DNA of 11,400 nucleotides from a virus (lineage: Duplodnaviria; Heunggongvirae; Uroviricota; Caudoviricetes). The notes below the pieces were generated by a model that ran no database searches, was not told the origin of the DNA, and saw nothing but the letters and a program-made list of their open reading frames with translations. The position numbers and the translations under genes were made by a program. The stretch lies in the IMG/VR virus record IMGVR_UViG_2654587571_000016. The stretch is one strand, 5' to 3'. Every line of letters begins with the position of its first letter. Positions within the stretch are counted from its first letter, which is position 1. This document shows, piece by piece, positions 1 through 11,400 of the stretch.

Positions 1-696
1 GCCTTCATCAGTGGTAAGGCACCGGAAATCAAACCCTCGCCCGGCGGCAACACGCCATCGGGTCCGTCTGCAGATACGTCCGTTCGCACAATCTCCCTGC
101 TGCCGGCAGCCGGAGAGGCTGCTGCGCAGGGCTGGAGCATTAAGGATGGCGGAATTCAGTTGTCAGATGGTGTATTTAAGATCACCAAGCAGAGCAATAA
201 AACCTGGTCCCTGACGCATCCGGTGGATGACGCAATTACCCTGCTGACACAGGGCGGCAGACTGACCTGTAAGTTCCGCCTGTCAGGCGCACTGACCAAC
301 AATCAGTTCGGTCTGGGAATTTATCTGTATACCGATGTAGCGTTACCTGACGTCGTGGCGATGACCGGGACTGGTAACCCGTTCCTGATGTCGTTCTTCA
401 CCCAGACCACAGACGGCAAACTGAATCTGATGCATCACAAGAAAGCAGGAAACACAAAGTTGGGCGAGTTCGGGAATTACAGTAACGACTGGCAGACGCT
501 GGAGCTGGTGTTCACCGCCAGCAGTGCCACGGTTACTCCGAAACTGAATGGAGTGGCTGGCCCGGCATTCCAGGTCATAAAAGACAGTCTGACACTGGGG
601 CTGAATGCACTGACGCTGACGGATATTACCAAAAATGCAACGTATGGCGTTGAGATAGAAAGTCTGGTGCTGGAAATAAATAGTCCTGCAGCGTAA
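1..696 (+). CDS. Hypothetical protein, 5'-truncated by the window edge (at least 231 aa); predicted beta-rich, function unknown
   Basis: Frame 1 is open from base 1 to the TAA at 694-696 (the listed ORF 160..696 is its distal part); followed 24 nt later by the gpR-like gene with a GGAGA Shine-Dalgarno. I do not recognise the family. Confidence 0.55.
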   Translation, partial: AFISGKAPEIKPSPGGNTPSGPSADTSVRTISLLPAAGEAAAQGWSIKDGGIQLSDGVFKITKQSNKTWSLTHPVDDAITLLTQGGRLTCKFRLSGALTNNQFGLGIYLYTDVALPDVVAMTGTGNPFLMSFFTQTTDGKLNLMHHKKAGNTKLGEFGNYSNDWQTLELVFTASSATVTPKLNGVAGPAFQVIKDSLTLGLNALTLTDITKNATYGVEIESLVLEINSPAA

Positions 697-719
697 GGAA
701 GAACAGGAGAGCAAAACAG

Positions 720-1187
720 ATGCTTAAGACAAACAGCCTCCGGAAGGGCATGATTCATGGGTGTCGCTGGTGTCAGGCCAACCCGGAAAAATTCACCATT
801 TTCGTGGAGAGCGGCAACATTGAAACGACCGGAGAAACGCCCTCGTTTGTTTACCGCTATCAGATGGTGATGTTTGTCATGGATTACGCCGGGGAGCTGG
901 ACGACCTCACGCTGCCGCTACTGGCGTGGTTATCCGAAAATCAGCCGCAATTGTTGCTTAATCCGGAGCGTAATCAGGACATCAAATTCTCCGCCGTTAT
1001 CAATGACGATGACAGCGCCGATCTCCTGTTTACGCTCCCTCTGCGGGAACGCGTTCGCATCACGCGCAGCAGTCAGGGGGCACCGCAGGCAGAACACCTG
1101 CAGGAGCCAAAACCCCGTCTGCCATCTTCCGAAGGCGACTGGTCGCATGTATTCCAGGATGTGACGTGGGGTGAAAGCGATGGATAA
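720..1187 (+). CDS. P2 gpR-like tail completion protein (155 aa)
   Basis: ATG at 720 with GGAGA upstream; same length as P2 R (155 aa); sits immediately upstream of S, V, W, J, I, H, G homologs; stop overlaps the next start (ATGGATAA). Confidence 0.6.
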   Translation: MLKTNSLRKGMIHGCRWCQANPEKFTIFVESGNIETTGETPSFVYRYQMVMFVMDYAGELDDLTLPLLAWLSENQPQLLLNPERNQDIKFSAVINDDDSADLLFTLPLRERVRITRSSQGAPQAEHLQEPKPRLPSSEGDWSHVFQDVTWGESDG

Positions 1188-1815
1188 GGCATTCACCCGC
1201 GTGGATGAAACCTTTGAGGCTATCCGCGACAGCCTGAATCAGCAGGCCATCAATAACATCGCCAGAAAGCTGGCACAGGATTTACGCCGCGCCCAGCAGG
1301 CGCGTATCCGGTCACAGAAAGCGCCGGACGGGACCGCGTGGACACCACGCAGACGCCGCGCAACCCGGATACAGGAGCGCATTCGCTTTATCTGGAATAA
1401 CGAAGCACGCACGCTGAAAAACTGGCATCACGACACGGGGAAATACGGGCGAACCATTACCGGGTGGGATGAGGATAAAAACAATATCCGCACGTTTTAC
1501 CGGGATGACATCGACCGCTTTCTGGAAATACGCACCCGGCGCATCAACCAGGACAGCACAAAGCGCGTCCCCATGTTCGTAAAACTGCGCACCGCCCGCT
1601 ACCTGAAAGCCCGTGCAGATGCTTCCGGTGTGACGGTGGGTTACAGCGGCGTGGCCGCACGTATTGCCCGCGTTCATCAGTTCGGTGAGCGCGATCAGGT
1701 TGCGCCGGGCATTTTCACCGATTACCCGGTACGTGAGCTGTTGGGCATCAGTCAGGCAGATGAACGCCTGATTTATAACACGGTGCTGGGCCGGATTGCG
1801 GAGGCTGTACGGTGA
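1180..1815 (+). CDS. P2 gpS-like tail completion / virion morphogenesis protein
   Basis: ATG at 1180 overlaps the upstream stop (alternative GTG at 1171); its TGA overlaps the GTG start of the gpV homolog (GTGA); position and size fit the P2 S slot, though larger than P2 S. Confidence 0.55.
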   Translation: MDKAFTRVDETFEAIRDSLNQQAINNIARKLAQDLRRAQQARIRSQKAPDGTAWTPRRRRATRIQERIRFIWNNEARTLKNWHHDTGKYGRTITGWDEDKNNIRTFYRDDIDRFLEIRTRRINQDSTKRVPMFVKLRTARYLKARADASGVTVGYSGVAARIARVHQFGERDQVAPGIFTDYPVRELLGISQADERLIYNTVLGRIAEAVR

Positions 1816-2393
1816 GCGCAGAACTCATGCGACTGCTGAGCAACATCATCCGCACTGGGATCATCTCTGAAGTTGATGAGAAGTCCTGGTGCGTGCGCGT
1901 TCGCAGCGGCGAACTGGAAACAGGCTGGTTGCGCTGGAACACCACGCGCGCGGGAGCCTTCAATGTGTGGCTGCCGCCATCACCCGGCGAACAGGTGGTA
2001 ATTGCCTGCATTGGCGGCAACCCGGAAACCGCCATGATAATTGGCAGCCTGTGGAGTGATGCCAATCCGGCCCCCGGCAAAAGCCTGAAAGAAATCGTGG
2101 TCAGCGCGCCGGATGGCGCGGTGTTCCGCTACGACGCGGACGCAGGCGCACTGAGCGCCAGCGGCATGAAAACGGCCACCCTGCAGGCATCCGTCAGTGT
2201 GACACTGGACACGCCCGTCGTGGAATGCACAGACCTTCTGAGAACGGCGACGCTTGACGTCACAAAAGGGGGAAAGATGAGCGGCAATATCACGCACAGC
2301 GGCGGCAATTTCACCTCAAACGGCATCACAGTGCATACGCATAAACACGGTGGCGTTAAAGGTGGCAGCGATTCGACAGGAGGCCCGCAGTGA
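1812..2393 (+). CDS. Baseplate assembly protein V (P2 gpV-like spike/hub)
   Basis: 193 aa; N-terminal ...NIIRTGIISEVD... and the C-terminal ...VTKGGKMSGNITHSGGNFTSNGITVHTHKHGG... block match the gpV family as I recall it; GGAGG 8 nt upstream of GTG 1812; GTGA overlap with the W homolog. Confidence 0.85.
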   Translation: MSAELMRLLSNIIRTGIISEVDEKSWCVRVRSGELETGWLRWNTTRAGAFNVWLPPSPGEQVVIACIGGNPETAMIIGSLWSDANPAPGKSLKEIVVSAPDGAVFRYDADAGALSASGMKTATLQASVSVTLDTPVVECTDLLRTATLDVTKGGKMSGNITHSGGNFTSNGITVHTHKHGGVKGGSDSTGGPQ

Positions 2394-2740
2394 CAACCCG
2401 CTACACAGGAATGAACCCGGACGGAACGGGAAACCTGAACGATATGGAGCATCTGAAACAGTCAGTCAGGGACATCCTGACCACCCCGCTGGCAAGCCGG
2501 GTTATGCGACGGGAATATGGCAGCCTTGTGCCCGATTTAATTGACGAACCCATGAATAACACCACTCGTCTGCAATGCATGAGTGCTGCCGTGATTGCGC
2601 TGACACGATGGGAACCCCGCATTGCCCTGGACGCCATCGACGTTGTCTGGAAGGCAGGAGGCCGCGCCGGGGTGACGCTGTCGGGCACTGTCATGCAGAC
2701 CATGCAGAATGTTGAATTAACCATCACGCTGAGGGAGTAA
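2390..2740 (+). CDS. Baseplate wedge protein W (P2 gpW / T4 gp25-like)
   Basis: 116 aa, the size of P2 W (115 aa); AGGAGG 7 nt upstream of GTG 2390; gp25/GPW-like sequence; directly followed by the gpJ homolog. Confidence 0.8.
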   Translation: MTTRYTGMNPDGTGNLNDMEHLKQSVRDILTTPLASRVMRREYGSLVPDLIDEPMNNTTRLQCMSAAVIALTRWEPRIALDAIDVVWKAGGRAGVTLSGTVMQTMQNVELTITLRE

Positions 2741-2743
2741 ATC

Positions 2744-3640
2744 ATGCCTGCCGTTGACCTTTCCCAGTTACCGGAACCCGCCATCATCGCGGAGCCTGAC
2801 TTTGAGGCAATTCTGGCTGACACAAAGGCCATGATGATTGCGTCCTATCCTGCCGAACAGCGTGAAGCCGTCTCCGCCGCGCTGGAGCTGGAATCGGAAC
2901 CCCTGAACGTTATCGCCCAGACAACAGCGTTTCGTGAAATGCTGTTACGCCAGCGGGTCAATGAGGGGGCACGCGCCTGCATGTTAAGCCACAGCGCCGG
3001 GACAGACCTGGACAACCTCGCGGGCAATATGAACACAAAGCGCCTGACCATCACTCCGGCAACGGATACCACCGACGCAGTGATGGAAAGTGACACCTCG
3101 CTGAGACTGCGGGCGCAGCGGGCGTACGATGGCCTGAGTGTTGCTGGCCCGTCAGGTGCATACGAGTATTTTGCCCGCAGCGCCAGCGGTCTGGTGCGTG
3201 ATGCGCGGGCTATCAGTCCGTCTCCGGCAAATGTGACGGTTTCCATCCTGTCCACTGAAGGCGACGGCACAGCAACGGAGGCGTTGCTTAATACCGTTCG
3301 CGCCGTTCTGAATGCAGAGGATACCCGCCCGGTGGCCGACCGCCTGACGGTACAGAGCGCCAGAATCGTGACATGGCGGCTGAATGCAAAACTGTACTTT
3401 TACCCCGGCCCGGAATCCGAACCTATTCTGGCGGCGGCTGAATCGTCGTTCAGGAAGTGGCTGGCTGAGCAGGGGCTTATCGGTCAGGACGTGGCGTTGT
3501 CCGCCATTGCTGCCGCACTGCATGTGCACGGTGTGCAACGCGTGGAGATAATCGAACCCACACAGAATATGGCCATCAGCGACATACAGGCGGCGCGCTG
3601 TGAGTCGTTCACCATCAGCGAAGGTGGGCGCAATGAGTAA
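2744..3640 (+). CDS. Baseplate assembly protein J (P2 gpJ-like)
   Basis: 298 aa (P2 J is about 302 aa); ATG 2744 with GAGGGAG upstream; stop overlaps the gpI start (ATGAGTAA). Confidence 0.85.
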   Translation: MPAVDLSQLPEPAIIAEPDFEAILADTKAMMIASYPAEQREAVSAALELESEPLNVIAQTTAFREMLLRQRVNEGARACMLSHSAGTDLDNLAGNMNTKRLTITPATDTTDAVMESDTSLRLRAQRAYDGLSVAGPSGAYEYFARSASGLVRDARAISPSPANVTVSILSTEGDGTATEALLNTVRAVLNAEDTRPVADRLTVQSARIVTWRLNAKLYFYPGPESEPILAAAESSFRKWLAEQGLIGQDVALSAIAAALHVHGVQRVEIIEPTQNMAISDIQAARCESFTISEGGRNE

Positions 3641-4163
3641 TTCACTGTTACCACCATCAGCCAGCAGTTTCATGCGTTGTGCCGAAGCTGTCGGAACGCG
3701 CATTACAGACATCCCGGTAGACCTCAACACGCTGTGGTCGCCGGACACCTGCCCGGTGCACCTGCTGCCTTATCTCGCCTGGGCATTTTCCGTTGACCGC
3801 TGGGATCGCAACTGGCCGGAAGAGACAAAACGACAGGTGATTCGTGATGCATGGCTGATACACCGACACAAAGGGACCATCAGCGCACTGCGCAGGGCCA
3901 TTGAGCCGCTGGGATACCTCATTCGCGTGTCTGAGTGGTGGGAGTTCGGCGGAGAACCGGGAACATTTACCGTTGAAGTCGGCACACTGGACAGTGGCGT
4001 GACGGAGGAAATGTATCTGGAAATGGAGCGGTTGATTGCTGATGCCCGTCCGGTCAGCCGCCACATGACAGGGCTGAATATCATTCAGGAAATTCCGGGG
4101 GATATTTTTGCAGCGGCGGCAACTCATGACGGTGAAGTTATTACCATTTATCCGGACGATTAA
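3633..4163 (+). CDS. Tail/baseplate protein I (P2 gpI-like)
   Basis: 176 aa when started at ATG 3633 (the upstream in-frame ATG 3600 lies inside gpJ and is unlikely); AAGGTGG Shine-Dalgarno; same size as P2 I; stop 2 nt before the gpH start. Confidence 0.8.
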
Positions 4164-4165
4164 GC

Positions 4166-6298
4166 ATGAGTACCACAACACGAAAATTTAAAACCGTTAT
4201 CACCGATACAGGTGCCAAAAAATTAGCTCAGGCAGCCGCGCCAGATGGTAAGCCTGTCCGCCTGACTCATATGGCCGTGGGCGACGGTGGCGGCGCGTTG
4301 CCCACACCAGACAGTAAGCAGACCCGTCTGGTGCATGAGGTGTGGCGACACACTGTTAATCGCGTCATCCTGGACGCAACACATCAGAACCGCATTATTG
4401 CGGAGCTGGTTATTCCTCCAGAAACGGGCGGATTCTGGATCCGGGAAATTGGTGTTTTTGATGAGCACGGCGATTTAATCGCGGTGGGCAATACTGCCGA
4501 AAGTTACAAGCCAGCCGTTGCCGAAGGGTCCGGACGTGCACAAACATTTCGCACCATTCTGACCGTATCCAGCACTGCCACTGTGGCGCTTACCGTGGAT
4601 AACACCATGGTGATGGCCACAGTGGATTACGTGGATAACAAACTGAAAGAGCATGAACAGTCACGATGTCACCCGGATGCCTCGCTGACCGCAAAAGGCT
4701 TTGTTCAACTCAGTAGCGCCACTAACAGCGATTCTGAAACGCTGGCTGCAACGCCGAAAGCGGTTAAGGTCGCGTATGATCTTGCTAACGGAAAATATAC
4801 AGCGCAGGATGCCACAACAGCGCGAAAAGGCCTTGTCCAGCTTAGTAGTGCAACCAACAGTACATCTGAAACGCTGGCGGCAACATCAAATGCAGTAAAA
4901 GCTGCCTATGACAATGCTGAAAAACGTCTGCAGAAAGCTAAGAATGGTGAGGATATCTCTGATAAAGACACCTTTACGAAAAATATCGGTGCCTGCCGTG
5001 CATATAGTGCAGAGCTGAATATTGGTGGAGATAGTGAAGCATGGACAACTGCGCAGTTGATTTTTTGGCTAGAGAGTCAGGGGGCATTTAACCATCCTTA
5101 CTGGATGTGCAAAGGCTCATGGGCTTATGCAAATAATAAGGTCATTACAGATACAGGTTGCGGAAGTATTTGTCTTGCAGGTGCTGTTGTGGAAGTTATT
5201 GGCACCCGCGGCGCAATGACCATACGCATTACCACACCGAGTACATCCAGCGGTGAAGGCATCCCTAATGCTCAATTTACTTATATTAATCATGGTGATG
5301 CTTATGCTCCTGGCTGGCGAAGGGACTATAACTCCAGGAATAAGCCAACAGCATCAGAGATCGGGGCGTTACCGTCAGATGGGACAGCAGTATCGTCAGT
5401 TAATCTGGCTTCAAAAGGTCGGCTGACCGCCCTGACAGATAATATGCAGGGGGCCACAGGTCTGGAGTTATACGAGGCGTATAACAACGGATATCCAACA
5501 ACGTATGGAAATATCATTCACCTGAAAGGGATGACAGCCGTTGGCGAAGGCGAATTACTCATCGGCTGGAGTGGTATAAGCGGTGCTCATGCTCCGGCAT
5601 TTATTCGTTCACGACGGGATACGCCCGACGCAAACTGGTCGCCGTGGGCGCAGCTTTACACCTCGGCTCATCCTCCTGAAGAGTTTTATCCAGTCGGTGC
5701 ACCGATTCCGTGGCCATCAGATACCGTTCCGTCTGGTTATGCCCTGATGCAGGGGCAGACTTTTGACAAATCTGCATACCCGAAACTTGCAGTCGCTTAT
5801 CCGTCAGGCGTTATTCCTGATATGCGTGGCTGGACGATTAAGGGCAAGCCCGGCAGTGGTCGTGCCGTATTGTCTCAGGAACAGGACGGCATTAAATCGC
5901 ACACCCACAGCGCCAGCGCATCCAGTACGGATTTGGGGACGAAAACCACATCGTCGTTTGATTACGGTACTAAAACGACCAGTTCATTTGATTACGGCAC
6001 AAAAACTACGAATAGCGCTGGAAATCATTCACACAATATACCTGTTGGTCACACTGGCGCGGGGAATGGTGTATCAGCCGGTTATAACGCTGCGTTAGGT
6101 ACTGGTACCACGTCGAGCGCAGGCGAGCATGCTCACAATGTATATATCGGTGCCCATAACCACACTATCGGCATTGGTGCTCATGCCCATTCTGTCATTA
6201 TTGGTCCCCACGGACACACCATCACCGTTAACGCTACGGGTAACGAAGAAAACACCGTAAAAAACATCGCATTTAACTATATTGTGAGGCTTGCATAA
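4166..6298 (+). CDS. Tail fiber protein (P2 gpH-like N-terminus and repeat region, His-rich receptor-binding C-terminus)
   Basis: 710 aa; the N-terminus (..[45 protein letters not shown]..) and the duplicated ..[21 protein letters not shown].. block match P2 H as I recall it; C-terminus carries repeated HxH motifs (HSHN, EHAHN, AHNH, AHAHS, HGH). Confidence 0.9.
4694..4912 (+). repeat. Diverged internal direct duplication in the tail-fiber gene (two ~87-nt copies, 4694-4780 and 4826-4912)
   Basis: Protein repeats [29 protein letters not shown] / [29 protein letters not shown]; the DNA copies are clearly related but diverged. Confidence 0.7.
5936..6016 (+). repeat. 30-nt tandem repeat, about 2.7 copies, encoding [10 protein letters not shown] units within the tail-fiber gene
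   Basis: Read directly: gggacgaaaaccacatcgtcgtttgattac / ggtactaaaacgaccagttcatttgattac / ggcacaaaaactacgaatagc. Confidence 0.8.
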
Positions 6299-6876
6299 TG
6301 ACATTCAGAATGAGTGAACACTCACGGACCATAAAAATTTATAATCTACTGACCGGAACCAATGAGTTTATTGGTGAAGGTGATGCATACATTCCACCTC
6401 ATACAGGTCTGCCTGCAAACAGTACCGATATTGCCCCGCCAGATATTCCGGCTGGCTTCGTGGCCGTTTTCAACAGTGATGAGGCATCGTGGCATCTCGT
6501 TGAAGACCATCGGGGTAAAACGGTTTATGACGTGGCATCAGGGGACTCGTTATTTATTTCTGAACTCGGTCCATTACCGGAAAATGTTACCTGGTTGTCG
6601 CCGTATGGAGAGTATCAGAAGTGGAACGGCACATCCTGGGTGAAAGATGCAGAAGCAGAAAAACTGTTTCGGATAAGGGAGGCGGAAGAAACAAAAAACA
6701 GCCTGATGCAGGTAGCCAGCGAGCATATTGCGCCACTTCAGGATGCCGTAGATTTGGATATTGCAACGGAGGAAGAGGCATCGTTACTGGCTGCATGGAA
6801 GACATACCGGGTATTGTTGAATCGTGTTAATACAGCGGTAGCAGCGGATGTTGAGTGGCCAGTCGCCCCACAATAA
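6298..6876 (+). CDS. Tail fiber assembly chaperone (Tfa; P2 gpG / lambda Tfa family)
   Basis: 192 aa; C-terminal ..[39 protein letters not shown].. is the Tfa signature as I recall it; start overlaps the gpH stop (TAATG). Confidence 0.85.
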
Positions 6877-6882
6877 AGAGAA

Positions 6883-6912
6883 AAAGCCATCGATTGAAAT
6901 ATAGATGGCTTT
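6883..6912. terminator. Hairpin between convergent genes (possible bidirectional terminator, better for the minus-strand transcript)
   Basis: aaagccatc-N12-gatggcttt, 9-bp stem; on the minus strand it is followed by a TTTTTCTCT run; lies 7-8 nt from both stop codons. Confidence 0.3.
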
Positions 6913-6919
6913 ATGTACT

Positions 6920-7492
6920 CTATTTATACAATACAACACCGCTCTTTTTAGTTATATATGTGCAGTTCGATGGTATATCTTTATTTATAAAAGACATTGC
7001 ACCTATTTTTACATTATCCCCAATTTTACGTGATAATCCAATGATGCAACAATTAGCTCCGATATCAACGTTACTACCAATTTTTACTCTTGAACCAGGC
7101 ATGTCACCATCTATCTGTCCAATGGTAGTATTCTGTCGTAACACCAGATTTTCACCAGCATCAACAGCAAAATGAACAACAATTCCAGCATGATGGGGAA
7201 TTGTTAACCCTTTTCCAATATTTGCGCCCAATCCAATTTCACAACCAAATTTGTTAATTATTTTACTGTTTAACTTTTTGGCTGCTTTCTTATGTAATTT
7301 ATTACCATTAATATACATTTCGTTAGCCAACCGCCACCAGAAAAGGAAATTCCGGTTACGCTGTTTTTTCTCTCTTAAAAGCCTCCAGATATCCATACGT
7401 TTCCGCCGAATTACTTCATATTTCCAGAAGTTTTTTAAATTAGTAGAGTCCCCAAATAAAACAAAGTGAATTGCCATTAAGTAAGACAGCAC
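6920..7492 (-). CDS. Hexapeptide-repeat acetyltransferase (WcaB/CysE/WbbJ-like left-handed beta-helix O-acetyltransferase); low-GC cargo gene
   Basis: Hexapeptide signature ..GCEIGLGANIGKGLTIPHHAGIVVHFAVDAGENLVLRQNTTIG..IGSNVDIGANCCIIG..; by inspection much lower GC than the flanking tail genes. Start uncertain: GTG 7492 has GGAGA 5 nt upstream; alternatives are ATG 7477 and the longest-ORF GTG 7525. Confidence 0.75.
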   Translation of the reverse strand: MLSYLMAIHFVLFGDSTNLKNFWKYEVIRRKRMDIWRLLREKKQRNRNFLFWWRLANEMYINGNKLHKKAAKKLNSKIINKFGCEIGLGANIGKGLTIPHHAGIVVHFAVDAGENLVLRQNTTIGQIDGDMPGSRVKIGSNVDIGANCCIIGLSRKIGDNVKIGAMSFINKDIPSNCTYITKKSGVVLYK

Positions 7493-7648
7493 GATAATCT
7501 CCTTAATTATTATTTCAGACCACACATATTATAAGGTTAAGAGATTATAAAATCCTGTTGTTTGTTATTCAAAAACAATTTTCTGAGAAGGACATACAAC
7601 AGCAAGTCGCCAGTCACCTTCATCAGGAAATTGGCGACATACGTTAAA

Positions 7649-8143
7649 TCAGAGCAGCCCCTTAACTGAGCTGGTCGCGCTATTAAGGGATGATGTCACC
7701 TTATCTTTGAAGCCGGACAACATATCGCTGAACGATGAGGATTGCAGGCGCTCCCGCAAATCCTCATCACAGCGTTCAAGAGTCAGTGAAAATTCTATCT
7801 TTTTCGCCTTACCGTAGCGATCAAACTCGGAGCGGGTCGTATTCGTTTCGGTCAGGACATACATGCCGTAAATCTGCCCGACGCCATCAATCAGAGGCCA
7901 GGGCCGTCCTGTATACGCCTGCGTGGTCAGCAGAGACAGCGACACTTCGCCACCTGTAATTTCAGGATAAAGCACACCAGAAAGAACGATGCGATCATCA
8001 CCTGCACCGATATACTGCCAGCTTGCTGAACGGTTAACGCGTTCATTTTTCACATGCCGCCAGCTTTTGTTTTGCTGTAACTGCTGATGCGGCAGCGTGC
8101 GCAGCTCAAAAACAAACATGCCATAGATCATCATCATGGCCAT
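7649..8143 (-). CDS. P2 gpU-like tail protein, orphan and in inverted orientation relative to the tail operon
   Basis: 164 aa; N-terminal MMMIYGMFVFELRTLP..WRH...RVNR and ..WPLIDGVGQIYGMYVLTE..IEFSLTLER resemble the gpU family from memory; normal GC, flanked by low-GC DNA. Confidence 0.6.
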   Translation of the reverse strand: MAMMMIYGMFVFELRTLPHQQLQQNKSWRHVKNERVNRSASWQYIGAGDDRIVLSGVLYPEITGGEVSLSLLTTQAYTGRPWPLIDGVGQIYGMYVLTETNTTRSEFDRYGKAKKIEFSLTLERCDEDLRERLQSSSFSDMLSGFKDKVTSSLNSATSSVKGLL

Positions 8144-8205
8144 GACTCCTCAATCTTTATCGTAAAAGTTTCAATGCTTTTTCCTGCGGAGGTAAGGGAT
8201 ATGTA

Positions 8206-8508
8206 GTGTTCAGTTGGCTGAGAACTTCAACAATTATCAGACGTTTTATACGGACACTAATTAAGATCCCAGCTAACAGGATGTTCAATACCCTTCTGTA
8301 TTTTTTCTTCACAAAGGCCGAAAATACATATTCATCCCCTGAGTGGTGGGACAGGCTCAGTGATAAACAGCGAGAGAATATCGGCAACATGATTATGTCA
8401 GGGGTTGAATTTTTTGGCAGACCTACATCACAGGTTGATCATTCCGTTGATTATAACGCCGCTGCACTTGAAGAGATAACATGCAGCAACAACGAAATTT
8501 GCAGCTGA
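8206..8508 (+). CDS. Hypothetical small protein (75-100 aa), low GC, unknown function
   Basis: ORF with a GTG start at 8206 (GGAGG about 14 nt upstream) or ATG at 8281; no recognisable family; weak translation signals, so it may not be expressed. Confidence 0.3.
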   Translation: MFSWLRTSTIIRRFIRTLIKIPANRMFNTLLYFFFTKAENTYSSPEWWDRLSDKQRENIGNMIMSGVEFFGRPTSQVDHSVDYNAAALEEITCSNNEICS

Positions 8509-8738
8509 ATGTTTACATGCTGTTAGAAAAAGCGGGCTGAACAATCATTTCGGGATTGTAACAGATAAGATGGCACTGCCCGCTTGCTTCCCGATATGCA
8601 CCTCAGCCAATAAACTTATGTAAGCAACCGATTTCCATTTATGCGGAGGTTATCAAAGTTGTTGGAGTTGCGAACTTCCGCTCTTCGCACAAAGCGTACC
8701 GCTAGGTTTGATTGTATTCTGGCTGCGCAAACTGTCAG

Positions 8739-8767
8739 TTGGAGTCTGAGCTATTACAACTTAGAAT
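8739..8767 (+). promoter_or_regulatory. Candidate sigma70 promoter for the ogr-like gene
   Basis: TTGGAG (8739-8744), 17-nt spacer, TAGAAT (8762-8767); about 30 nt upstream of ATG 8798. Confidence 0.25.
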
Positions 8768-8797
8768 AGCGGCAGCACCACGTTAAGGGAGGTCGCT

Positions 8798-9058
8798 ATG
8801 TTCCGTTGTCCGCTTTGTGGCGCATCTGCCCGAATCCGCACCAGTCGTCCGGAAAACGATTCAAACACTGTGCGGCAAAAGTATTACCAGTGTAACAACC
8901 TGGAATGCGGCGTATGCTTCTCAACACTGGAAGCTTTCCATAAATTCACATCAAAACACGCCTCCGGCGTTCACTCTTCGGAAGGTATCCCGTGGCATGA
9001 GCTGCCAGCTTCACACAGGGGAAACAATCAGATGAGTTTGCCTTTACCTCAGAATTAA
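8798..9058 (+). CDS. ogr: Ogr/Delta-family zinc-finger late transcription activator (P2 Ogr-like, with C-terminal extension)
   Basis: MFRCPLCGASARIRTSR...YYQCNNLEC: the CxxC...CxxxxC zinc-finger layout and MF.CPLC start of Ogr/Delta; strong Shine-Dalgarno (AAGGGAGG); 86 aa against about 72 aa for P2 Ogr. Confidence 0.8.
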   Translation: MFRCPLCGASARIRTSRPENDSNTVRQKYYQCNNLECGVCFSTLEAFHKFTSKHASGVHSSEGIPWHELPASHRGNNQMSLPLPQN

Positions 9059-9067
9059 CAGGCAGAA

Positions 9068-9096
9068 TTGCCGGAGTAACAAAAAAACGATAGATT
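9068..9096 (+). promoter_or_regulatory. Candidate promoter for the hok mRNA (long structured leader expected)
   Basis: TTGCCG (9068-9073), 17-nt spacer, TAGATT (9091-9096), about 150 nt upstream of the hok ATG, in line with the long leaders of hok-family mRNAs. Confidence 0.2.
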
Positions 9097-9248
9097 ACCC
9101 GCGGGTGCCTTTCGGCTGATGGTCGGAGGAATACCCGAAGGCCGGATGTGGAAAGGCCCCGGAAAACATTTCTGTTTAACCGAGGCCCTAACATATCTAC
9201 CTTAAGCAAGTGATAGGTTAGCGCCTCTCCAACAAAGGAGCAAGCGCT

Positions 9249-9389
9249 ATGTCGCAAAAATCGCTTACAGCCATCACGTTCTGCGTGACGGTAATCCTCA
9301 TCATCTGGATGCTACACGGTTCGCTGTGTGAAATACGGATGAGCTTCTGGGGAGCGGAGTTTGCGGCGTTCTTACAGTGTAAGCAGTAA
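9249..9389 (+). CDS. hok: Hok/Gef-family type I toxin (46 aa membrane peptide)
   Basis: MSQKSLTAITFCVTVILIIWMLHGSLCEIRMSFWGAEFAAFLQCKQ: hydrophobic N-terminal helix followed by the conserved SLCEIR...AAF(L/M) motif shared with HokA/HokC as I recall them; AAAGGAG Shine-Dalgarno 8 nt upstream; missed by the 60-aa ORF track. Confidence 0.8.
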   Translation: MSQKSLTAITFCVTVILIIWMLHGSLCEIRMSFWGAEFAAFLQCKQ

Positions 9390-9398
9390 GGAAACCGC

Positions 9399-9420
9399 GA
9401 CGGGGGAGCAATCCCCCGTC
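9399..9420 (+). other. GC-rich perfect hairpin in the hok 3' UTR (possible mRNA stability or fold-back element)
   Basis: gacggggga-gcaa-tcccccgtc: 9-bp perfect stem, 4-nt loop, no U-run after it. Confidence 0.4.
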
Positions 9421-9475
9421 AATCGGTTGCTAAGGTTGGCTGAAGTGGCACCCTATCTCACAGACATGAACAACA

Positions 9476-9509
9476 AACCCGCAGCGTAAGAACTGCGGGT
9501 TTTCTTTTT
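9476..9509 (+). terminator. Intrinsic terminator of the hok transcript (possibly bidirectional)
   Basis: cccgcag-cgtaagaa-ctgcggg followed by TTTTCTTTTT. Confidence 0.6.
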
Positions 9510-9577
9510 GGAACAATCACTAGCTAGTGTACCGTTAACGGCACATAATGCTCGCACAACAAACCTGTTAAAAGAGA

Positions 9578-9859
9578 TTACTCAGCATTCTCCTGCTTCC
9601 ATTGCCGGATCATTTCATCGGTAACATCACCCTCATAACATACCACGTCATACCCTCCATTACGGCTATATGCACTGCGTCCACCACATCTACTACCATT
9701 CCTTGCATGATTATAAGGACACGCACAATTGCCTGGATAAGATTCAATGGATTCTTTAATTATTTCTTTTTTGATCTGAGCATCAGACTTTCCTGTTGCT
9801 GCATATCCACTAAAAGATACTAAACAAAGGCAGATTGCCATTAATAAACCACATCGCAT
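9578..9859 (-). CDS. Small secreted cysteine-rich protein of unknown function (about 93 aa, predicted signal peptide)
   Basis: Taking ATG 9859 gives MRCGLLMAICLCLVSFSGYA|ATG..., a signal-peptide-like N-terminus; mature part holds 5 Cys (..PGNCACPYNHARNGSRCGGRSAYSRNGGYDVVCYEGD..). The longest ORF runs to 9973 (TTG/ATG) but that extension is non-hydrophobic and lacks a Shine-Dalgarno. Confidence 0.5.
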   Translation of the reverse strand: MRCGLLMAICLCLVSFSGYAATGKSDAQIKKEIIKESIESYPGNCACPYNHARNGSRCGGRSAYSRNGGYDVVCYEGDVTDEMIRQWKQENAE

Positions 9860-10140
9860 ACCGATACACTCTATTACTAACCAATCATAGCCCACATCAT
9901 AAAATCGAGATGAGGAGTACAATACCTTTAACAAGAAGGTGTCATAACGATAATATGTCGTGCAATTCATCAAAAAAAAGATCTATATCAAAGAGATAGA
10001 ACTCTTATCAGTGCTTCAGACATCGGCATTCGAGGCAGCAGAAAAACAGTAAATCTGACGAATTTGCCTTTTCCCAAGATGTTGTCAGATTAAAAAGATA
10101 GATTAGCGCAGGTACCTGTTGGTGGATTGCAGGAGGAAAA

Positions 10141-10245
10141 ATGAAGTCGAGTGAAAAAATCCCAGAAAAATTTTTGTTTAACAGAGGTCCTGGTTCACTA
10201 TGCGAAATACGGAGGAGCTGCAGAAGAATTCTGCTTCATCCTTAG
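10141..10245 (+). pseudogene. Decayed hok-like paralog (34-codon ORF retaining the SLCEIR motif but lacking the transmembrane segment)
   Basis: MKSSEKIPEKFLFNRGPGSLCEIRRSCRRILLHP; DNA homology to the intact hok both in the coding region (ggttcactatgcgaaatacgga vs ggttcgctgtgtgaaatacgga) and upstream (gatagattagcgca vs gataggttagcgcc); AGGAGG Shine-Dalgarno retained. Confidence 0.4.
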
Positions 10246-10329
10246 AGTTTAAACAGCACGTGCACTACCATTGTTTCTGCATATCGCCACACCATCGCCA
10301 CTCTACCGCCATTGCACAAAATACAAATA

Positions 10330-10355
10330 CGAAAAAACCACCCGAAGGTGGTTTC
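10330..10355 (-). terminator. Intrinsic terminator of the glyW-cysT-leuZ tRNA operon
   Basis: On the minus strand: aaaccacc-ttcg-ggtggttt hairpin followed by a TTTTTT run, about 40 nt after the leuZ 3' end. Confidence 0.6.
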
Positions 10356-10397
10356 ACGACACTGCTTATTGCTTTGATTTTATTCTTATCTTTCCCA

Positions 10398-10484
10398 TGG
10401 TACCCGGAGCGGGACTTGAACCCGCACAGCGCGAACGCCGAGGGATTTTAAATCCCTTGTGTCTACCGATTCCACCATCCGGGC
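10398..10484 (-). tRNA. leuZ: tRNA-Leu (anticodon UAA)
   Basis: The reverse complement matches E. coli tRNA-Leu(UAA) as I recall it (GCCCGGATGGTGGAATCGGTAGACACAAGGGATTTAAAATCCC...GGGTACCA), 87 nt including CCA. Confidence 0.95.
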
Positions 10485-10496
10485 TCGGGAAGAAAG

Positions 10497-10570
10497 TGGA
10501 GGCGCGTTCCGGAGTCGAACCGGACTAGACGGATTTGCAATCCGCTACATAACCGCTTTGTTAACGCGCC
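10497..10570 (-). tRNA. cysT: tRNA-Cys (anticodon GCA)
   Basis: The reverse complement matches E. coli tRNA-Cys as I recall it (GGCGCGTTAACAAAGCGGTTATGTAGCGGATTGCAAATCCG...CTCCA), 74 nt. Confidence 0.95.
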
Positions 10571-10624
10571 AAATTCTTCAGGCCTTTCAGCCAGACATCC
10601 GCTTGACGCCGATGTCTTTTAAAC

Positions 10625-10700
<76 letters not shown>

Positions 10701-10773
10701 ATTCATCAAGCAATCAGTTAATCACTTGATTTTATTATCGTCTGGCAATCAGTGCCGCCGTTCGATGCGTTGC

Positions 10774-10801
10774 ATTCTACTTACCTGGCGCGATGAGTCA
10801 A
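10774..10801 (-). promoter_or_regulatory. Candidate sigma70 promoter of the tRNA operon
   Basis: On the minus strand: TTGACT (10796-10801), 16-nt spacer, TAGAAT (10774-10779), with an AT-rich UP-like stretch further upstream; about 70 nt upstream of the glyW 5' end. Confidence 0.35.
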
Positions 10802-10851
10802 CGATATTTTTCACCACTTTTGATCGTTTGCTGAAAATTACGCCGAAACGA

Positions 10852-11400
10852 TCACTGATCAAGCAAATCTGCACGCGCAGCGCTCAAATATTGCAACATT
10901 GACCACAGAGTCAGTACCGCAGCCACAAAGAAAAGTGCAATACCGGCGTACTCAACCCAAATGTTCGGACGCCACAGCAGCCATGCCAACGCCACCATCT
11001 GGGCAGTGGTTTTCACTTTCCCAATCCAGGAGACGGCCACGCTACTGCGTTTACCCAACTCCGCCATCCATTCGCGTAGCGCAGAAATAATAATTTCACG
11101 GGCGATCATCGTTGCCGCCGGTAATGTCACCCACCAGCTGTGATAATGCTCGGTTACCAGCACCATGGCGATAGCCACGAGAACTTTATCTGCCACAGGG
11201 TCAAGGAAAGCACCAAACCGGGTACTCTGGTTCCAGCGGCGTGCCAGAAAACCATCGAACCAGTCAGTCACCGCCGCGACGCAGAAAATGAGCGCGGCGG
11301 CAAACGGCGACCAGGTGACAGGCAGATAAAAGACCAATACAAAGAATGGGATAAGGATGACACGGAACAGTGTAAGCAACGTAGGGATATTAAATTGCAT
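10852..11400 (-). CDS. pgsA: CDP-diacylglycerol--glycerol-3-phosphate 3-phosphatidyltransferase (phosphatidylglycerophosphate synthase)
   Basis: 182-aa [33 protein letters not shown]... with the CDP-alcohol phosphotransferase motif (DGFLAR..G..LDPVADK); the start codon is the last three bases of the window. Confidence 0.95.

Follow-up and report, generated by a model that had tools for sequence, protein, structure and literature searches.

An 11,400-nt stretch of DNA (the window throughout) carries P2-type genes for the spike, wedges and fibres of a contractile tail, and raises the question of why those for the sheath, tube and tape measure should be missing. An original prediction, made from the sequence alone, had proposed either a recently truncated prophage or a module retained in the service of a co-resident phage or satellite. 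We found that the element in the window is of an ordinary and already known kind, a freshly crippled P2-like prophage rather than a specially retained module. Judging from sequence comparison, it is very probably the right-hand part of a P88-type P2-like prophage (Xuanwuvirus, Peduoviridae) in E. coli which has recently lost 7,513 bp in a single deletion.

Tail and fibre genes of the window

Eight consecutive, uninterrupted P2-type genes, R to G, had been predicted at 720-6876. We observed all eight on the + strand, each ORF scoring well above the curated cut-off of its Pfam family; the families of U and of the Ogr/Delta activator also exceed their cut-offs. The first gene encodes a homologue of gpR, the tail terminator or tail completion protein (720-1187; P2_Phage_GpR, PF06891, E = 1e-37), and is identical in nucleotide sequence to that of L001, the locus holding the intact prophage of the O103 strain RM8385. 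It is followed by homologues of gpS, for virion morphogenesis or tail completion (1180-1815, alternative start 1171; Phage_tail_S, PF05069, E = 8e-28), of the baseplate spike gpV (1812-2393 from a GTG, or from an ATG at 1827; Phage_base_V, PF04717, with Phage_spike, PF18715, and Apex, PF18946) and of the gp25-like sheath initiator gpW (2390-2740; GPW_gp25, PF04965). Next are homologues of the baseplate wedge protein gpJ (2744-3640; Baseplate_J, PF04865) and of gpI, for the wedge and fibre attachment (3633-4163; Tail_P2_I, PF09684, E = 1e-50). The run ends with homologues of the tail fibre gpH (4166-6298; Phage_tail_fib, PF12571, fibre repeats, PF03406, and Collar, PF07484) and of the tail-fibre assembly chaperone gpG (6298-6876; Caudo_TAP, PF02413, E = 1e-39). 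On the opposite strand lies an intact homologue of the tube initiator gpU (7649-8137, - strand; PF06995, E = 6e-39), 100% identical to that of the relative. In the P2 virion a gpD trimer is the hub, gpU the tube initiator and gpJ2-gpI the wedges, with gpH attached to gpI, gpV as spike, gpW as sheath initiator and gpR as terminator (preprint 10.64898/2026.09.14.750843).

The overlapping stop and start codons that had been noted are all present in the sequence. The S start overlaps the R stop codon within ATGGATAA at 1180-1187 (RefSeq places the S start at L001 21180), V and W overlap by GTGA at 2390-2393, J and I by ATGAGTAA at 3633-3640, and H and G by TAATG at 6296-6300. The GTGA shared by S and V at 1812-1815 is valid only if V starts at its GTG; both starts occur in public annotations, and for some strains RefSeq gives the ATG at 1827. 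Since none of the eight proteins differs from its counterpart in intact prophages, the open frames are no chance pattern. The stretch 4703-6860, from the C-terminal part of H onward, shares about 87% identity with the lambdoid genes for side tail fibre and tfa. A hairpin followed by a short run of T was seen at about 6887-6911, just 3' of G.

A probable 7,513-bp deletion

The reported lack of sheath, tube and tape-measure genes nearby was confirmed by tblastn: T, E, E', FII, FI and D of the intact relative gave nothing better than E = 0.2 against the window. The window does not hold the complete contractile tail set (sheath, tube, tape measure, chaperones, hub) of a functional plaque-forming myophage. 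Alignment with L001 located the loss. Window 1-8167 corresponds to L001 20001-28167 at 99.99% identity (one mismatch), and window 8168-11400 to L001 35681-38913 at 99.85% (five mismatches, all in pgsA). Annotated in the interval between, L001 28168-35680, are T and GpE, genes for a tail protein, tube and sheath, late control D, and a gene of the YecA family. The lost block comprises T save its last 18 nt, E/E', FII and FI, the intergenic stretch that separates FI from D, D itself, and codons 1-267 of the yecA-family gene.

The alignment breaks at window 8167 (L001 28167), and the junction at 8167-8168 reads CGTAAAA on its left and GTTTCAATG on its right. To the left remain the last 18 nt of T (8150-8167, - strand; five codons and the stop), the sole remainder of a gene that spans L001 28150-30957. 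To the right is the 3' remnant of the yecA-family/SEC-C cargo gene (8168-8508, + strand), which encodes residues 268-379 of 379 and matches by tblastn at 100% over these residues; the full gene lies at L001 34882-36021. The proposal of a recently truncated prophage is thus borne out, as one internal deletion with its limits at the 3' end of T and halfway into the cargo gene that precedes ogr. We envisage a single non-homologous event, very recent, which would have started just inside the 3' end of T, ended midway through the yecA-family gene and left U, ogr and all eight genes from R to G untouched.

We observed no shared sequence of at least 6 nt, direct or inverted, within 40 nt of both breakpoints, and a repeat- or microhomology-mediated deletion was rejected on this ground. 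The absence of microhomology is compatible with illegitimate recombination and carries no mechanistic signature. A deletion mediated by an insertion sequence (IS) was likewise rejected: the IS in the yecA-like gene of an O111:H11 relative lies 148-156 bp from the breakpoint, and the junction has no IS sequence.

The evidence for the deletion is one assembly, and the junction was seen in no other sequence searched. A 240-bp query across it found no place covering both halves in 5,426 complete E. coli genomes, and the exact 40-mer of the junction was present in neither GTDB species representatives nor JGI metagenome contigs. For three junction-adjacent ORFs, exact-protein look-ups gave either no record or unrelated loci: one has the full tail and a yecA-like gene that is split, and the other is a contig of 595 bp. 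The look-up of U gave ten places, each of which has the complete tail cluster. Such privacy, together with a blunt junction free of microhomology and flanking repeats and with no gene call recorded across or beside it, is what might be expected if the junction were not biological and had come instead from faulty assembly, a mis-join or editing of the sequence, the real strain having a complete tail cluster. We nevertheless consider an artefact improbable. Assembler mis-joins happen at repeats, and neither breakpoint has one. Moreover, pgsA in the window differs at five synonymous sites from the allele of the enterohaemorrhagic (EHEC) strains carrying the closest, intact prophages; the best complete genomes are 99.9% identical to it and none matches exactly. 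The window's genome is therefore one that the collections do not include, and a private deletion in such a genome would be nothing unusual; comparable private deletions are found among the relatives.

Integration site and orientation of U

The prophage sits in tRNA-Leu(taa) (10398-10484, - strand), upstream of cysT-glyW-pgsA. Its attR (10329-10452) is a 124-bp repeat of the other prophage end that overlaps the 3' part of the tRNA gene; it matches L001 508-631, which adjoins yecA, at 99.2%. The element is thus integrated at a tRNA gene with a duplicated att sequence.

In P2, FI-FII-E-T-U-D come after G on one strand, and against this order U had been described as orphaned and inverted. The first half of the description stands, since the upstream operon partners of U and the region upstream of FI have been deleted. 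The inversion is no anomaly. In the isolated phage P88 and all ten relatives with an identical U, R to G run forward, U-T-E'-E-FII-FI in reverse and D forward, and all relatives have T, E', E, FII and FI directly upstream of U on its strand. With this block opposite to R-G in every intact relative examined, an inverted U is normal for the lineage, and the earlier reading was misled by comparison with P2 rather than with a lineage whose FI-U block is inverted. Gene order and strand match P88 for each gene present in the window; the full arrangement is visible only in near-identical relatives. The possibility that FI, FII or T might be found upstream of base 1 did not hold either: the relatives have lysis and head genes there, and the missing genes were never upstream of that base.

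Cargo genes and regulatory elements

The window opens with the 3' end of a 625-aa cargo gene with DUF1737, SASA and DUF6645 regions (1-696, + strand; PF20350, DUF6645, E = 3e-20). In this prophage subgroup the gene, complete at L001 18819-20696, separates the lysis cassette from R; it is missing from P88 and from the loci L002, L005, L008 and L011. Between G and U is a hexapeptide acetyltransferase cargo gene (6920-7492, - strand) which is not a tail gene; RefSeq calls a serine O-acetyltransferase at L001 26920-27492, and the Hexapep match is weak. Its GC content is 35%, and it occupies the site of the invertible fibre segment and invertase of P88.

The Ogr-type activator that had been placed 2 kb away was found at 8798-9058 (+ strand), 1.9 kb past the end of G; it is a zinc-finger late-gene activator of the Ogr/Delta type (PF04606, E = 5e-14) and is 100% identical to that of the relative. 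A Hok/Gef-family toxin gene (9249-9389, + strand; PF01848, E = 4e-7), annotated also in the relatives and P88, lies near the prophage end. In a search for the Ogr-type late promoter dyad TGT-N12-ACA before R or V, position 9528 was the one place in the window to match exactly; it lies outside the late genes, and chance alone would account for it. The intergenic regions of the intact relative showed no clear late-promoter consensus, and a generic scan for sigma-70 promoters and terminators returned no more sites than shuffled sequence.

Recency and selection

Intact frames with overlapping stop and start codons had been taken as an argument for purifying selection. Comparison with intact prophages does not bear this out: within the prophage part of the window a single position, 4456 in H (T versus G), departs from the O103 copy, and the change is synonymous. 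One such substitution is too few to measure selection by dN/dS. At a distance of one synonymous base there has been no time for decay, so the open frames reflect recency. As far as the alignment can tell, the retained genes would be intact because the deletion is recent, and not through purifying selection.

It could still be argued that the baseplate and fibre genes, with Ogr, are kept by selection, either as a source of fibres or baseplate components for a P2-like phage or satellite in the same cell, or with the element's heads borrowing the tails of a helper. Every retained gene and ogr is intact, head and lysis genes lie just upstream in the relatives, and about one in five E. coli genomes has related P2-like tail genes which might complement it. 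The population data speak against it. The R-I block is held to at least 80% in 991 of the 5,426 complete genomes and the E-FII-FI-D block in 1,112, so that sheath-less, baseplate-only loci are not in excess. The junction is unique and non-recurrent, and one breakpoint cuts an unrelated cargo gene, as a random event would. In another strain (L004) a 10,591-bp deletion of L001 15838-26428 removes R to H and keeps U-T-E-FII-FI-D, the mirror image of the window. With recency fully accounting for the intact frames, we regard a retained module as very unlikely. Other copies are damaged in yet other ways, with a truncated H call in L005, an IS in the yecA-like gene in L006 and a split T in L007; decay in this prophage lineage is haphazard.

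That the deletion was selected as a disarming event, favouring the host through loss of virion production, is the least probable explanation: only essential tail genes and one cargo gene were removed and inactivating changes are frequent in this lineage, but the host-killing lysis genes lie upstream of the window in the relatives, outside the deletion, an induced tail-less prophage would still lyse the cell, and a single event cannot separate selection from drift.

For a recently deleted prophage, the consequences can be drawn from the biology of P2. If the late genes were switched on, the cell could still produce spike, wedge and fibre parts; with the hub (gpD), tube, sheath and tape measure gone, there would be nothing to assemble them on. 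By analogy with P2, the prophage would be unable to make tails or infectious particles unaided, and we infer that it is defective and at the start of its decay. There is only a slender chance that, lacking a tail shaft, it may persist as a helper-dependent element, its DNA packed into heads that are completed by the tails of a co-resident P2-like phage, or its distinct H/G fibre mixed into helper particles and changing their host range; the head and lysis genes that such a course involves are known from relatives only.

Comparison with known systems

Neither of two other classes of element fits the window. An R-type tailocin, or domesticated contractile tail module, is ruled out by the missing sheath, tube and tape measure and by the head and lysis genes directly upstream of base 1 in all near-identical relatives. 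A phage satellite or helper-dependent element of the P4-like or PICI kind would have an integrase and replication module of its own, a function for hijacking a helper, and few structural genes if any; against it stand nine full-length structural and assembly genes that are collinear and nearly identical with those of a complete prophage; no satellite-type genes were seen in the window. The label that suits the locus is that of a defective P88-like prophage from which 7.5 kb have been deleted internally; neither orphan baseplate operon, nor candidate tailocin, nor candidate satellite module is appropriate. Beyond correct annotation its importance is slight. It does caution that translationally coupled, intact frames are not a sign of purifying selection where near-identical intact copies exist, and that the proper standard for gene order is the nearest phage lineage, here P88 with its inverted FI-U block, and not P2 itself.

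P2 has late gene families and Ogr-type activation in common with the window, and the virion roles of these families are taken from work on P2 (preprint 10.64898/2026.09.14.750843); it differs from the window lineage, in which the FI-to-U block is inverted. Closer are P88, which was induced out of E. coli K88 (PMC5285337), and its relatives, including the Citrobacter phage Shae_phiSM (Xuanwuvirus), which are 96.5-96.8% identical to the window in nucleotide sequence across U and the late genes in common, a match that covers only 41% of the window. In P88 the genes R S V W J I H G and U have the order and strands seen in the window, and hok/gef lies near the genome end in both. T, E', E, FII, FI and D of P88 are missing from the window; a different cassette supplies the fibre tip, tfa and the gene downstream, with the acetyltransferase in place of the invertible segment and invertase; and the window has additional cargo, the DUF6645 gene before R and the yecA-family gene before ogr.

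Closest of all are the intact leuZ-integrated P2-like prophages of EHEC O103, O111 and O26 strains (for example RM8385, NZ_CP028112, 1,200,956-1,238,215). They have the attachment site and cargo genes of the window and differ from it by one nucleotide across the 10.4 kb of shared prophage, whereas they retain the 7,513 bp. From the defective or cryptic prophages that arise in E. coli by internal deletion, with an essential morphogenesis block lost and the neighbouring genes still intact, the window does not differ in kind; it is an example of very recent origin whose junction is private.

Deletion relative to the intact prophage

The window was compared by megablast with 5,426 complete E. coli genomes, none of which carried at least 80% of it in one place. 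Positions 1-8167 were matched at 99.9-100% by many O103, O111 and O26 strains. Alignment with L001, a locus of E. coli O103 RM8385 (NZ_CP028112), paired window 1-8167 with L001 20001-28167 and window 8168-11400 with L001 35681-38913. Between yecA and tRNA-Leu, L001 holds a complete P2-like prophage whose ends are marked by a 124-bp repeat; it has genes for an integrase, regulators, a replication endonuclease, portal, terminase, scaffold and capsid, together with lysis and tail genes. The interval absent from the window, L001 28168-35680 (7,513 bp), is annotated with a tape-measure protein, a GpE-family protein, a tail protein, the major tube protein, the sheath protein, the late control D protein and the 5' part of a YecA-family protein. 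This single gap, with both flanks collinear, bears out the proposal of a recently truncated prophage, and the window element is a defective prophage made by internal deletion.

The gene map was drawn from the ORFs, from Pfam scans and from annotated genomes used for comparison. The final 18 nt of T, the tape-measure gene (8150-8167, minus strand), abut the terminal 112 codons of a SEC-C gene of the yecA family (8168-8508, plus strand), the junction reading CGTAAAA followed by GTTTCAATG. No microhomology was found there, nor any direct or inverted repeat of at least 6 nt within 40 nt of either breakpoint, and the junction was absent from complete E. coli genomes, GTDB species representatives and JGI metagenome contigs. 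Look-ups with ORFs next to the junction did not lead to the source either. These observations fit a private illegitimate deletion. The junction may instead be an artefact of assembly or editing, but a repeat able to cause such a mis-join is not present at the breakpoints. The IS of an O111:H11 relative, at a distance of 148-156 bp, played no part.

Baseplate and fibre operon

The P2-type genes R, S, V, W, J, I, H and G (720-6876, plus strand) all eight scored above the curated cut-off for the Pfam family expected of each. The overlaps were located at R/S (ATGGATAA, 1180-1187), V/W (GTGA, 2390-2393), J/I (ATGAGTAA, 3633-3640) and H/G (TAATG, 6296-6300); that at S/V (GTGA, 1812-1815) is conditional on V starting at GTG 1812, since some public annotations choose ATG 1827. 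With tblastn, U and Ogr (8798-9058, plus strand) of the intact relative were found in the window at 100% identity, and the best match for its T, E, E', FII, FI and D had E = 0.2. The original prediction had thus correctly described an eight-gene operon with its overlaps and without sheath, tube or tape measure; its interpretation stands as regards truncation, and not as regards a retained module, selection or an anomalous U.

The prophage part differs from the O103 copy at one position, 4456 in H. As this difference is synonymous, all eight R-G proteins are identical to their intact-prophage counterparts. Intact frames, taken earlier as a sign of purifying selection, are to be expected after a very recent deletion and are uninformative on selection. 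The remaining five differences from the O103, O111 and O26 strains, also synonymous, all fall within 211 bp (10984-11194) of pgsA (10852-11400, minus strand), in contrast to the single base in the neighbouring 10.4 kb of prophage. The exact pgsA allele was in no complete E. coli genome. The host backbone is thus unlike that of the strains with the closest prophage, and the source genome lies outside the collections; either this prophage has moved into another host background, or recombination was local.

Functional consequence

In the P2 virion, a gpD trimer forms the hub, six gpU atop it initiate the tube, and six gpJ2-gpI wedges, with gpH fibres hanging from gpI, are glued around it by gpX; gpV is the spike, gpW begins the sheath and gpR terminates the tail (preprint 10.64898/2026.09.14.750843). 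The window element is without chaperones, tape measure, sheath, tube and hub, and the region upstream of FI is gone as well; in relatives no other non-coding stretch is available from which U could be transcribed. At most, spike, wedge and fibre sub-assemblies would be made, with nothing present to build them on, and we infer that alone the element would yield neither tails nor infectious particles. A dyad search of the window and of the intact relative's intergenic regions located no late promoters. As in P2, R and S would lie on the upstream head/lysis transcript and V-G would form a separate unit.

The alternative that the baseplate genes are a retained module fares poorly. The near-identical prophage of L004 (CP182019.1; 99.94% identity to that of O103) has a 10,591-bp deletion (L001 15838-26428; breakpoint at locus 11708-11709) that removed the capsid 3' end, M, L, X, the lysis genes, R, S, V, W, J, I, H and the 5' end of G and kept U-T-E-FII-FI-D, the mirror image of the window's loss. 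Elsewhere among the relatives, T is split, the H call is truncated or the cargo gene carries an IS. At a threshold of at least 80%, the R-I block occurs in 991 of the 5,426 genomes and the E-FII-FI-D block in 1,112, so baseplate-only loci are not over-represented. Taken together, damage across the lineage looks haphazard in these sequences. By the defining tests the element is neither a tailocin, sheath and tube being absent, nor a satellite. It is very improbable that it persists as a helper-dependent prophage borrowing tails, or that a co-resident P2-like phage receives its distinct fibre.

Cargo genes

The window opens with the end (1-696, plus strand) of a 625-aa DUF1737/SASA (sialate O-acetylesterase-like)/DUF6645 gene (L001 18819-20696), which in this prophage subgroup lies between lysC of the lysis cassette and R. 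Missing from P88 and from several relatives that are otherwise close (L002, L005, L008 and L011), it is cargo inserted within the late operon. The D-ogr interval (window 8168-8797; about 500-3650 in L002, L005, L006, L008 and L011) is a variable cargo site in this phage lineage, occupied by the yecA-family SEC-C gene in the window and O103/O26, a 500-aa PIN_4 protein in L005 and L008, HxsD and two radical-SAM genes in L011 and a yecA-like gene with an IS in L006, and empty in L002, which gives it the look of an accessory- or defence-gene hotspot. Between ogr and attR (10329-10452) lie a hok/gef-family toxin gene (9249-9389, plus strand) and a low-GC (38%) hypothetical gene (9578-9859, minus strand; longest ORF 9578-9973); in 9249-9973 Rfam gave no Sok-type antisense RNA at or above its gathering score. 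The tRNA-Leu(taa), tRNA-Cys and tRNA-Gly genes follow (10398-10700, minus strand).

The fibre cassette (5685-7484) comprises the H tip, the tfa gene G and a hexapeptide acetyltransferase (6920-7492, minus strand; 35% GC). It is 94-96% identical to sequence in the unrelated large myophages JL22 (99.6 kb) and vB_EcoM-Ro157c2YLVW (80.7 kb), and its fibre part shares ~87% identity with side tail fibre genes of lambdoid phages. An Rfam IS009 match in the 3' half of G (6641-6839, plus strand; 192 bits against a gathering score of 117) probably reflects a family built from tfa-derived sequence.

Comparison with P88

Among isolated phages, P88, Xuanwuvirus P884B11 and Citrobacter phage Shae_phiSM come closest, with 96.5-96.8% identity across the late genes. 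P88, which is P2-like, was obtained by induction from E. coli K88 (PMC5285337). Its R S V W J I H G are followed by an invertible fibre segment and invertase, where the window has the acetyltransferase, and then by U, T, E', E, FII and FI on the opposite strand, with D on the forward strand. The inverted gpU gene (7649-8137, minus strand) had seemed anomalous because the comparison was with P2 itself, in which the F operon is co-oriented with G; U has the window's orientation in P88 and in all ten public loci with an identical U, where T-E-FII-FI-D adjoin it in the P88 arrangement. Judged against this true lineage, the deletion alone is unusual and the inverted U is normal. The lineage and the defective state are both well known, and the exact junction is the sole new element.
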